Origin: Escherichia phage D5505
DNA: 64,000 nt
Reading direction: 5' to 3' (one strand)
Sequence record: MK327929.1
The notes below the pieces were generated by a model that had not been told where the DNA came from, did not search any database, and was given only the letters and a program-made list of their open reading frames with translations. The position numbers were made by a program, and so were the translations under genes. This document shows positions 23,696-39,673 of the stretch, in pieces. Positions within the stretch are counted from its first letter, which is position 1. Each line of letters opens with the position of its first letter.

Positions 23696-23749
23696 TCCTC
23701 ATGTTATGTCAGTAAGACTACTATAACACAACACGAGGGACTTGTAAAC
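23696..23749 (-). promoter_or_regulatory. early promoter + RBS cassette, copy 1 (GTTTAC -35, TATAGT -10, GAGGA SD)
   Basis: 54 bp identical to 39620-39673; -35 hexamer abuts stop of upstream alt-like gene. Confidence 0.7.
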
Positions 23750-29559: not shown

Positions 29560-29825
29560 TGTTCATCCTTTAGAGTTTGGTTTACAGCTCTATTATAAAT
29601 CAATTCATCATTAAGCTCAGTCAAAGACCTGTGGTACGTGGTTCTAACTTTATTTCCTTGCATCCAGTGCTTGACGTAAATGAAACCTTGCTCTACACAT
29701 TTTTTAAAAATTCGTTCGTCTTTTTGAGCTCGGAATTCTGGATTGCATCTAAAAAATTGATTTACGTGACCGTAATCACGTGTAGTATTACCTTCATTTT
29801 CATAAATAGTGTGAACAACAAACAT
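29556..29825 (-). CDS. hypothetical protein (30.1-like)
   Basis: 89-aa ORF with overlapping start/stop to neighbours. Confidence 0.55.
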   Translation of the reverse strand: MFVVHTIYENEGNTTRDYGHVNQFFRCNPEFRAQKDERIFKKCVEQGFIYVKHWMQGNKVRTTYHRSLTELNDELIYNRAVNQTLKDEQ

Positions 29826-30664
29826 TAGAATGCTCCTTGGAAAATATTATCACCACTAGTAAATCTATTAAAATATCCTGCATCACCAGGCTTAGTATAA
29901 CTCCACGTATGGAATGGATTCATATGATACGGGTGTGTATAATATGGATTATACGGATTAAATCCAGGAGTTCTCCAGGTAGTGTTCCAACGAAAAGAAT
30001 CGTTTTTAACCATCTTCTCAATTACATCTTTTATAGCTTTTTCACTATCAAAACTTTCTTTATTTTCCTTCGGTGAAAAAAGCTTATTTTCTACATCATT
30101 CCATGTATAAACTCGCTGCGCAGTTTTTGGAATATTGTCACGCTCTCCTCGAGCCATCCAATAAACAGGAACATTTAATATTTCACTCGCATGATCGCAG
30201 TGGTGGGCGAGATCGTCAATATAACAAATTACATTATATTTCTCTTTTGCCTTTTTGAATAACTCTTCTTTTGAAGAATCATGACCACACATCATTACTT
30301 CTGAGAAGGCACCAGGAAAAAGAGCATTCAAATTAAATTGACGATTCAGCAGAGCGTCAATAGAATCACCCAATGCTGTAACAGCTACAAAATTATAATC
30401 TTCTTTTAGTTTGTTAATTACGCACAGGGCATCTTTATATGGAGACAGGTAACGAATAAAATCTGATCGATTGTATTTTTCAATTAGCTTGGCACCAAGT
30501 TCTTCATCACAATTAAAGAGTTTACCCGGAGAAATAAATTTCTCATCTTGGATCATTTTTAAAATATGTTCTAACGGAAGATTATATTTCTGAGCAAAAT
30601 AAGGAAGACCTGATTGCCAGCTTAAACATACTCCATCAATATCAGTTAAAATAGTAGGCTTCAT
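29825..30664 (-). CDS. HAD-superfamily hydrolase-like protein (30.2-like) with Tyr/Pro-rich C-terminal tail
   Basis: 279-aa ORF; N-terminal ILTDIDGV resembles HAD motif I (DxDG[TV]); C-terminus NPYNPYYTHPYHMNPFHTWSY. Confidence 0.55.
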   Translation of the reverse strand: MKPTILTDIDGVCLSWQSGLPYFAQKYNLPLEHILKMIQDEKFISPGKLFNCDEELGAKLIEKYNRSDFIRYLSPYKDALCVINKLKEDYNFVAVTALGDSIDALLNRQFNLNALFPGAFSEVMMCGHDSSKEELFKKAKEKYNVICYIDDLAHHCDHASEILNVPVYWMARGERDNIPKTAQRVYTWNDVENKLFSPKENKESFDSEKAIKDVIEKMVKNDSFRWNTTWRTPGFNPYNPYYTHPYHMNPFHTWSYTKPGDAGYFNRFTSGDNIFQGAF

Positions 30665-31125
30665 AGAGAGTCTCTTAATAGGTTTAACACATCAATAAAT
30701 TCAGCTTCGGTTAGTATTGTATCATCTTTTGTTAGACCACTAGCCATGCTGTGCTTCAAAACTTTTCCTTTCGAGGCTTGTAATGCATCGCGAAAGCCCC
30801 TGTTTTGGAACGCTGCTTCAAAATATGCATTTGTGTATAATTCTTTCCACACTGGAGAGTATCTTGAAAACGGAACTCCAAGCCAGAAGAGGGTCCCACG
30901 GTCCTGAGCTCTAGCATAAGACCTTCCAGCTTGTTGGGCGGCAAGCCCGGATAACCCAAATATACGACGTTGCTGTTCAATATTTTTCACCTTACACCCT
31001 TGGAGGAATCCTTCGAGACCTCCAAATTGGATACCATCCATAACAAAAGGCCATTGGGCGAAATTACTTAATGCGCATGATGGCCATCTAAAATTGCTTC
31101 TAATCTCTAACTCAGACATTTTCAA
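30661..31125 (-). CDS. YbiA/NADAR (DUF1768) family protein (30.3-like)
   Basis: 154-aa ORF; SNFAQWPFVMDGIQF resembles E. coli YbiA SNFAAWPIKVDGKTW. Confidence 0.6.
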   Translation of the reverse strand: MKMSELEIRSNFRWPSCALSNFAQWPFVMDGIQFGGLEGFLQGCKVKNIEQQRRIFGLSGLAAQQAGRSYARAQDRGTLFWLGVPFSRYSPVWKELYTNAYFEAAFQNRGFRDALQASKGKVLKHSMASGLTKDDTILTEAEFIDVLNLLRDSL

Positions 31126-31318
31126 TACTTATAATTTCAACATCAGCCCAATGACCATAGCAAGGAAGACGAAATTCAACTGGCCAGTTAGGGTCCTTTT
31201 CTAATATAATAGACTTAACTTGTGGTTCTTCGTGTTCATCAGTATATGGATTTTTATCTGTTACTTTATATGTGACCTTAATGTACTGAATTCCAAAAAT
31301 CTTATTAATTATATTCAT
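31112..31318 (-). CDS. hypothetical small protein
   Basis: 68-aa ORF, overlaps neighbours. Confidence 0.5.
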   Translation of the reverse strand: MNIINKIFGIQYIKVTYKVTDKNPYTDEHEEPQVKSIILEKDPNWPVEFRLPCYGHWADVEIISIENV

Positions 31319-31512
31319 ACTAATTCCTTTAATCCGTAGATAGGAGATAATTCATCACCCATACGAAGGTCTTCATTTCCATCTACCCAGGAAACAATAT
31401 AAGCCTCTTTTATTTGAATACCACTCCATTTAAATGGAGGTAGAACCTTAGAAATTAATCCAGGTATACCAACTCCCTTTAATTCAACAGTTTGACCTAA
31501 AAAGAATTTCAT
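31315..31512 (-). CDS. hypothetical small protein
   Basis: 65-aa ORF, start overlaps upstream stop. Confidence 0.5.
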   Translation of the reverse strand: MKFFLGQTVELKGVGIPGLISKVLPPFKWSGIQIKEAYIVSWVDGNEDLRMGDELSPIYGLKELV

Positions 31513-31798
31513 TAAAACCTCATCTGAAAACCGTGCGATTTAACATTACCGCCATTAATATCAGAACTATTAATTTCACGTGCAATTGAGGGATCAATGT
31601 CAATTTCGCGATTGAGTTTAGTGATAGCTAAAGTATCGCGCCCATTTACAGTACGGAACTCTAAAGGGCAGACTACATTAACGTAGTTTTTAATCGATTC
31701 ACTGGTAGGTTGCAAATGTGCAGGAAGGTCTTTAGGCGCCTTTGAGAAAACCACTTCACAAAATTTTTACGGGTATCAAAATAAGTAGTCATAAACAT
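31512..31798 (-). CDS. hypothetical protein with split reading frame (ATG+SD in one frame, 80-codon body in -1 frame)
   Basis: ATG 31798 preceded by GAGGAA; body ORF 31512-31754 has only a GTG without SD; frames overlap at A_AAT_TTT (31760-31766). Confidence 0.4.
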
Positions 31799-31811
31799 AA
31801 CATTTTCCTCA

Positions 31812-31830
31812 GTAAGGGGCCAAAGCCCCT
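31812..31830 (-). other. intergenic stem-loop GGGGC-TTTG-GCCCC
   Basis: Perfect 5-6 bp GC stem between two minus-strand genes; possible processing/terminator site. Confidence 0.4.
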
Positions 31831-31838
31831 CATTTATT

Positions 31839-32204
31839 TTAAATATCAAATTCGTTAAGAACTACATCAAAGATTGCTTCAAGATGCTCAGGTTTAGCTC
31901 TGTTACTCAGAATATGACGAATCCAAGTTTTAACCAAAAGCTTGCGATTAACGCCATTCCAGCAAGGATGAGTCCCTAAATCGCGTTCACGGAAATCATC
32001 ATCCAGAGCGATTTTAAAGTTGGAACCTTCCATCGTGATTGAAACCGTGATACCGTTTTCAAATCGCATATAAACGTAATTAGGAGTCATATACTGCTCA
32101 ATTTCGCATACTGATCCATTTTGATGTTTCCAAAGGCAAATAGTATCAATAGAACCTGCAATACCATTAGAAACATATTTACGTTCAAAGTTGATGTAGT
32201 TCAT
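31839..32204 (-). CDS. hypothetical protein
   Basis: Track ORF starts at TTG 32216; first ATG at 32204 gives 121 aa. Confidence 0.5.
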   Translation of the reverse strand: MNYINFERKYVSNGIAGSIDTICLWKHQNGSVCEIEQYMTPNYVYMRFENGITVSITMEGSNFKIALDDDFRERDLGTHPCWNGVNRKLLVKTWIRHILSNRAKPEHLEAIFDVVLNEFDI

Positions 32205-32229
32205 TTTATTATCCAAGATGTTTAATTGC

Positions 32230-32269
32230 GGTACAGGTATATAATATCATATCCTGTACCAAAGTAAAC
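32230..32269 (-). promoter_or_regulatory. early promoter with embedded stem-loop (GTTTAC ... GGTACAGG-loop TATTAT-CCTGTACC)
   Basis: -35 GTTTAC, 17-nt spacer, -10 TATTAT; 8-bp perfect inverted repeat flanks the -10. Confidence 0.6.
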
Positions 32270-32271
32270 AA

Positions 32272-32604
32272 TTATTTTACTACTTTCCAATGCTGCATGT
32301 CAAGTTTACCAACTTTTTTCATCTTCTCAATTAAGCGTTCGGCACGTTGGCGAGCTGTAACATAATACCATTCACCTAATTCATTTTGTTCAATTTTTCC
32401 AACGATTACTGTATTCAATTCATAAATCCAACCAGTAAAGAAATTATGAACTTGAATTGTAAAGGTGAAATCTGTTCCCATACCTTCTGTTGTTTCTACT
32501 TCAATAATATCACCTTCAACTGCCATTAAGAACCACATAGTTTCATCATATTTACCATTGAAGCATTTAGTTTTAACTGCAGCGTTCAGATTAATCGTTT
32601 TCAT
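32272..32604 (-). CDS. hypothetical protein
   Basis: 110-aa ORF, ATG with AAGGAG SD. Confidence 0.55.
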   Translation of the reverse strand: MKTINLNAAVKTKCFNGKYDETMWFLMAVEGDIIEVETTEGMGTDFTFTIQVHNFFTGWIYELNTVIVGKIEQNELGEWYYVTARQRAERLIEKMKKVGKLDMQHWKVVK

Positions 32605-36833: not shown

Positions 36834-38241
<1,408 letters not shown>

Positions 38242-39619: not shown

Positions 39620-39673
39620 TCCTCATGTTATGTCAGTAAGACTACTATAACACAACACGAGGGACTTGTAAAC
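39620..39673 (-). promoter_or_regulatory. early promoter + RBS cassette, copy 2
   Basis: 54 bp identical to 23696-23749; -35 GTTTAC sits 3 nt after rnlA stop. Confidence 0.7.

Follow-up and report, generated by a model that had tools for sequence, protein, structure and literature searches.

Loss of a single base, in the phage or in its record, as the probable cause of a frame break at a slippery-looking heptamer in gene 30.6 of a T4-like genome

Background

The classical single-base frameshifts are those of the rII mutants of T-even phages, with the slipped-strand model of Streisinger. Programmed -1 frameshifting is represented by dnaX, by orfAB of IS911 and IS3, and by the tail assembly chaperone genes G and GT. 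At these sites, a heptamer of the form X_XXY_YYZ lies where two reading frames overlap, accompanied by a stimulator in the form of a hairpin or pseudoknot, an upstream Shine-Dalgarno-like element, or both. The locus described here has such a heptamer at a frame overlap, but no stimulator was found with it.

The efficiency of the heptamer in question has been measured in E. coli. Without a stimulator, AAAUUUU gives 0.070 +/- 0.002% -1 frameshifting (Sharma et al. 2014, PMC4066793 Table S3), compared with 0.055 +/- 0.031% for a background that carries no motif. The value is 0.355% with the stimulators of IS911, and it takes the strong IS3 pseudoknot to raise it to 11.4% (Sharma et al. 2014, PMC4066793). 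The review by Atkins et al. 2016 (PMC5009743) covers "savior" indels, for which adventitious frameshifting can correct an indel at the level of translation.

The closest described counterpart of the locus itself is gene 30.6 of T4, which lies among the small early genes of the cluster that extends from rIII to DNA ligase. The gene is annotated as a single 288-nt CDS in T4, 232Ecol030PP, LZ, Shinka and PYps5T, and its product begins MFMTTYFDTRKNFCEVVFSKAPKDL. The T4 protein is known as Y12K_BPT4 ([quoted passage not shown]), and its family as PF26902 (Phage_T4_Y12K) and as PHROG 2153, whose category is "unknown function". Nothing relevant to 30.6 was found in the literature searched.

A 30.6 locus in two frames

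The sequence analyzed, termed the window, is a stretch of 64,000 nucleotides from Escherichia phage D5505 (MK327929.1). It is a T4-like (Tequatrovirus) genome segment with ~98% identity over 24 kb to Yersinia phage PYps5T and Escherichia phage 232Ecol030PP. Across the 951 nt surrounding the locus, identity is ~95.5% to T4 and 99.5% to 232Ecol030PP. The disrupted gene corresponds to T4 30.6 and resides on the minus strand between 30.7 and 30.5; the features of 30.6 given below are all on this strand.

The upstream gene 30.7 ends with a TAA at 31841-31839. Direct reading places the Shine-Dalgarno sequence of 30.6, GAGGAA, at 31805-31810, separated by a 6-nt spacer from the start codon ATG at 31798-31796. 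This GAGGAA is unchanged in T4, 232Ecol030PP and LZ. The 5' segment of the gene (31761-31798) consists of the ATG, codons for MFMTTYFDTRKN and two bases of a Phe codon. The body (31512-31760), which encodes CEVVFSKAPKDL...GFQMRF followed by a stop, is in the -1 frame relative to the ATG. Its stop codon overlaps the start of 30.5 as TAATG (31514-31510), and the ATG of 30.5 is served by a separate GAGG Shine-Dalgarno sequence at a distance of 5 nt.

The two frames join within CGT AAA AAT TTT GTG. Here an A5T4 run (31760-31768) contains the heptamer A_AAT_TTT (31766-31760), which fits the pattern X_XXY_YYZ in phase with ATG 31798. Adjoining the heptamer on its 5' side is a TAA (31767-31769) that closes the body frame and that is out of frame in the intact gene. 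The frame of ATG 31798 reads MFMTTYFDTRKNFVKWFSQRRLKTFLHICNLPVNRLKTTLM and ends at a TAG (31675-31673) after 41 codons. The body-frame ORF (31512-31754) has 80 codons counted from its sole possible start, a GTG at 31752-31754 that encodes Val-17 in the intact protein and that lacks a Shine-Dalgarno sequence; an in-frame ATG occurs only close to the end of the ORF.

An earlier note, made from the letters of this DNA alone, had described most of this arrangement. Its account of an 80-codon ORF with a poorly supported GTG start, of a stop/start overlap with the next gene, of an ATG and a body in different frames, of their meeting at the heptamer, and of a TAA directly upstream of the heptamer agrees with what we observe. 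The note also placed GAGGAA and 5 nt in front of ATG 31798; the Shine-Dalgarno sequence and the ATG are as described, and the spacer is 6 nt.

Synteny places the locus in the gp30.6 family, given its 30.7 and 30.5 neighbors and a stop that overlaps the 30.5 start. The window lacks the single intact ORF of ~95 codons that characterizes this family.

Two further elements lie upstream. Between the 30.7 stop and the 30.6 Shine-Dalgarno sequence is a G+C-rich hairpin of the form GGGGC-loop-GCCCC (31813-31832, minus strand; -17 kcal/mol, z = -3.06). Its stem is kept across phages and its loop varies (TTTG versus TTCA). On the plus strand, the hairpin is followed by a T-rich tail and has a terminator-like score. 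This hairpin is context and lies outside the lesion. In addition, a strong sigma-70-like promoter match (TTGACA-18-TAAAAT, 11/12; 32274-32303, minus strand) overlaps the 3' terminus of 30.8, precedes the start of 30.7 by ~60 nt, and is probably an early promoter for 30.7 to 30.x.

Orthologues with one continuous frame

A comparison with related loci produced a consistent result. A continuous 30.6 ORF of 95 codons, one base longer at the junction, is present in 22/22 related loci, and the two-frame layout that would be expected to recur at a programmed -1 site is conserved in none. The loci include those of T4, 232Ecol030PP, LZ, Shinka and PYps5T, four IMG/VR contigs, two metagenome contigs and ten assemblies that encode an identical gp30.7. 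Alignment of the junctions gives CGTAAAAA-TTTTGTG for the window, AAAAATTTCTGTG for T4 and Shinka, AAAAACTTCTGCG for 232Ecol030PP and AAAAATTTTTGTG for LZ. Five junction alleles occur across the 22 loci, and they differ only at synonymous third positions of the codons for R-K-N-F-C-E-V. These five synonymous alleles are direct evidence for purifying selection on a single continuous frame. The earlier note had proposed just such an alignment of orthologues as a check, and its outcome is a single continuous ORF with a different run length, a result that the note itself had named as one that would refute its proposal.

The orthologues bear on the flanks of the junction as well. The Val-17 codon is GTG, GTA or GTT among them, and the GTG at 31752-31754 is therefore not conserved as a start codon. 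From 31751 to 31202 (~550 nt), the window is base-for-base the same as 232Ecol030PP, whose 30.6 is intact. Since frame-intact relatives have the identical downstream DNA, nothing has co-evolved with the frame split.

At the protein level, the restored 95-aa sequence aligns to PHROG 2153 over positions 1-95 of 95 (E = 1.3e-50), and for this reason the 13 N-terminal residues are assigned, by homology, to the gp30.6 family. The N-terminus MFMTTYFDTRKNF is the same in 22/22 related loci. When joined, the two pieces from the window equal gp30.6 of 232Ecol030PP exactly, with the body corresponding to its residues 14-95, and the restored protein is of the T4 gp30.6 type. PF26902 is annotated on the 95-aa orthologues that adjoin an identical gp30.7. 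A local Pfam-A scan of restored gp30.6 matched no family, even at E <= 1, and the library presumably predates PF26902. A search of solved structures with gp30.6 gave no match (best E = 0.9).

The missing base

Adding one base to the window indicates which one is missing. The window with an added C (AAT-TTC-TGT) is found as an exact 38-mer in 32 phage records (38 records matched), and the window with a T added at the junction has no exact match among phage records. The added C restores the 95-aa orthologous ORF, as expected of an indel allele. Orthologue alignment and allele tables place the loss between 31761 and 31760, at codons 12-14, where Asn-Phe-Cys AAT TTC TGT becomes AAT TT- TGT. Most parsimoniously, the lost base would be the C of TTTCTG. 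On the same reasoning, loss of this C would itself have generated the A5T4 run, rather than trimming a homopolymer that already existed. Shortening of an A5T5 homopolymer was considered as the alternative route. The window with the added T is without an exact match, but LZ does have A5T5, with other flanks; this route is thus conceivable and less parsimonious than loss of the C.

Thus, with high confidence, we regard the locus as a simple one-base deletion in 30.6 that involves no recoding. The lesion is an ordinary single-base frameshift in a known gene family and represents nothing new. The earlier note had listed a 1-nt indel in the homopolymer run among its alternatives. The indel is supported by 22/22 orthologues that are one base longer; its placement in an existing homopolymer run is less parsimonious, given that loss of the C would itself have made the A5T4 run.

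The allele in sequence collections

Several searches were conducted for a second occurrence of the allele. The 366 phage records matched by an 86-nt query all fall below 99% identity, and the 60 of them that were listed all span 87 nt. A 37-nt megablast query, centered so that the seed must cross the junction and accompanied by the window with the added C as a positive control, had no match in 50,697 phage records. When the 41-aa out-of-frame product was used with tblastn, 495 phage records were matched, none with an identity of at least 95%, and the best matches are all in two pieces that span 124 nt (123 + 1). The exact junction 25-mer was not found in IMG/VR. With a variable-gap pattern, every version retrieved from IMG/VR and the metagenome collection was intact, and 185,579 prokaryotic genomes gave no match. 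Neither the 80-aa nor the 41-aa product is present among 153 billion gene positions. The idea that the frameshift allele is shared with other genomes was therefore rejected, with negative results from phage records, IMG/VR, metagenomes, genomes and gene positions alike.

Mutation or record artefact

If one base is missing, it is missing either from the phage or only from its record. We lean slightly toward the former, in which a frameshift has truly inactivated a dispensable gene (a null allele), and we consider this reading slightly more probable than not. A sequencing or assembly artefact, with 30.6 intact in the phage, is the less probable reading and a serious one. None of the collections searched contains a second copy of the allele, as would be expected of an artefact, and the missing base lies within a T/C-poor low-complexity stretch.

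The position of the deletion is also suggestive. Between 31752 and 31764, four differences separate the window from its closest relatives (99.3-99.8% identical), namely three synonymous substitutions and the deletion, and they form a 13-nt cluster at a switch of haplotype. The switch is placed there because Shinka is identical to the window from 32207 to 31735 except for the missing C, and 232Ecol030PP is identical to it from 31751 to 31202. Judged from these matches, the switch may mark a site of recombination, or it may stem from a consensus that is a chimera of a mixed population. Consensus calling from such a population could err at this kind of position, and the artefact could therefore be a consensus error where two haplotypes were mixed or recombined.

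Other observations argue against an artefact. Across ~50 kb compared with two relatives, the 30.6 lesion is the sole isolated single-base indel in a conserved CDS, and no second frame-breaking single-base indel is present. The other indels in this span are intergenic (36355 and 50679), form compensated pairs in divergent patches, or are multiples of three. The region includes 337 homopolymer runs of at least five bases that are free of such an error; because only one such indel accompanies this many runs, the assembly is not error-ridden. Moreover, the most parsimonious candidate for the lost base, a C between Ts, is unlike the miscall of a homopolymer length. Finally, indel-disrupted genes, namely 30.2 and 30.4, are common in the same accessory cluster of other records. 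The little probability that is left beyond a genuine allele and an artefact is split between a functional GTG-initiated fragment and exploited frameshifting.

Possible initiation at the GTG

The functional product might be an N-terminally truncated gp30.6 of 80 aa that is initiated at the GTG, as one alternative in the earlier note had it. The ORF at 31512-31754 is indeed open from this codon and retains 80/95 residues. However, GTG 31754 has no Shine-Dalgarno sequence in front of it, and it is an internal Val codon that is variable (GTG/GTA/GTT) among orthologues. The 15 residues that are absent from the 80-aa fragment are invariant in the family. Ribosomes from ATG 31798 would cross the GTG in another frame and stop 80 nt beyond it. 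We consider this product improbable, and the alternative is not upheld. Termination-reinitiation on the GTG was rejected because the ATG-frame ribosomes would terminate 80 nt downstream of it, and no body-frame start is near TAG 31673.

Possible frameshifting at A_AAT_TTT

The most elaborate alternative, and in our estimate the least probable, is a programmed or functionally exploited -1 frameshift at A_AAU_UUU that joins the 13-codon leader to the body and sets a reduced level of gp30.6. The geometry of the site is what such a mechanism would require. At the frame overlap, the heptamer sits in the 0-frame phase that a -1 slip needs, a -1-frame stop lies directly 5' of it, and such a slip would recreate native gp30.6 exactly. 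The trans-frame peptide of such a slip would be DTRKNFCEVVFSK; a version of A_AAT_TTT in which the heptamer is destroyed would be, for example, AAGAACTTT. In addition, H_HH.U_UU.Y motifs are among the better E. coli heptamers when a strong stimulator is provided, and a strong pseudoknot lifts AAAUUUU to 11% (PMC4066793).

Against this reading, AAAUUUU without a stimulator is at background (0.070%; PMC4066793), and the stimulator that a programmed site carries was not detected, either downstream by pseudoknot-free folding or upstream by a scan for Shine-Dalgarno-like elements. The 80 nt downstream of the heptamer fold at -10.3 kcal/mol in this pseudoknot-free calculation (z = +0.65), and 147/200 shuffles fold as well. 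The 30 nt upstream contain no GGAG, GAGG or AGGA. An Rfam search of 31200-32400 returned only sub-threshold chance matches to miRNAs. The two-frame arrangement is seen in no orthologue, and the flanking sequence matches intact relatives exactly.

Nor is the heptamer more frequent than chance predicts. The window contains 57 copies of AAATTTT, compared with 74 +/- 11 in shuffles, and XXXYYYZ heptamers number 305 per strand in the 64 kb. The intact T4-type alleles already contain A_AAT_TTC, where a -1 slip would soon meet a stop (AAA TTT CTG TGA). We infer that A_AAT_TTT is a by-product of the Lys-Asn-Phe codons after loss of the C. The earlier note had predicted that a -1 shift would give a fusion of ~95 aa, MFMTTYFDTRKNF/CEVVFSK..., and this fusion is indeed the orthologous protein. 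The programmed shift that was to produce it is not supported, given orthologues that are continuous with one more base, an efficiency at background, and a site at which no stimulator was found.

A weaker form of the idea holds that the deletion is real and stably kept, and that low-level slippage at A_AAU_UUU yields a small, useful dose of full-length gp30.6. We consider this, too, very improbable. Were it correct, a slippage-rescued 30.6 would be a natural indel saved by adventitious frameshifting in a T-even phage, and a boost of slippage would be conceivable in T4-infected cells or via an unmodelled element. Some full-length gp30.6 is likely made by slippage at a very low level.

Transcriptional slippage was likewise rejected, as it requires considerably longer runs than the A5 and T4 present here.

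Expected consequences

If the deletion is present in the phage, ribosomes that initiate at ATG 31798 would translate 13 correct codons and then run out of frame to the stop that ends the 41-codon product, and the remaining 82 codons would be left without a usable start. A 41-aa nonsense peptide would presumably replace gp30.6, which would be essentially unmade, apart from <= ~0.1% via spontaneous slippage and a trace of the 80-aa GTG-initiated fragment. The downstream gene 30.5 would lose translational coupling, with its GAGG element still in place. Loss of 30.6 should leave the phage viable, given that the gene is small, accessory and of unknown function. Such a phage would be a natural 30.6 null mutant and a usable reagent for the study of 30.6 function.

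The case has little biological weight, as a single genome has a knocked-out or mis-sequenced copy of one dispensable, uncharacterized gene of T4 type. For annotators, it illustrates that chance is expected to place slippery-looking heptamers at frame breaks in an AT-rich phage genome, and that orthologue comparison settles such cases quickly.

Other features of the region

Small indel disruptions recur among the 30.x genes, as judged from the records compared. At ~23001 of 232Ecol030PP, gene 30.2 has an A5 run where the window has A6 (30076). The 30.2 CDS is 633 nt in 232Ecol030PP and 855 nt in PYps5T; the ORF in the window (29825-30664, minus strand) is without the homopolymer shortening of 232Ecol030PP. 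Gene 30.4 (31112-31318 in the window) encodes only 40 aa in a human-gut metagenome contig (L013, 3888-4010), which has a 5-nt gap at a point corresponding to ~31212. In phage LZ, the gene is divided into 30.4(A) and 30.4(B) (locus 1202-1406).

An exact direct repeat of 54 nt is found at 23696-23749 and 39620-39673. Both copies are intergenic, one near the 3' end of alt and the other between rnlA and alc. On the minus strand, the repeat has the look of a T4 early promoter (GTTTAC...TATAGT) followed by a GAGGA Shine-Dalgarno sequence, and it could be a duplicated regulatory cassette.

Length differences from close relatives occur at other sites. An intergenic TTATGA tandem hexamer next to hoc (~11437) has two to three extra copies in the window, for a gain of 12 nt relative to 232Ecol030PP and 18 nt relative to PYps5T. 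Short, highly divergent patches at 38135-38189 (net +18 nt) and 29860-29955 (-24 or -15 nt) differ in frame from close relatives and are mosaic divergence typical of T-even phages.

Comparison with known systems

Like the "savior" indels reviewed by Atkins et al. 2016 (PMC5009743), the indel in the window lies in a shift-prone sequence and could be partly compensated in translation. In the window, compensation is expected to be ~0.07%, without evidence of its use. In dnaX, IS911, IS3 and G/GT, the two-frame layout is conserved in homologues, and this is not so for the window locus.

The window would resemble the rII mutants in the loss of one base from an A/T-rich repetitive stretch of a dispensable gene. 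Unlike a loss of the Streisinger type, however, the base that is apparently gone is a C between T runs, rather than a unit of a homopolymer.

The closest counterpart is T4 30.6, which has the same position between 30.7 and 30.5, the same Shine-Dalgarno sequence and ATG, and the same TAATG overlap as the window locus. Compared with T4 30.6, the gene in the window is without one base at codon 13, and its ORF falls into an out-of-frame product of 41 codons and a start-less remainder of 80 codons.
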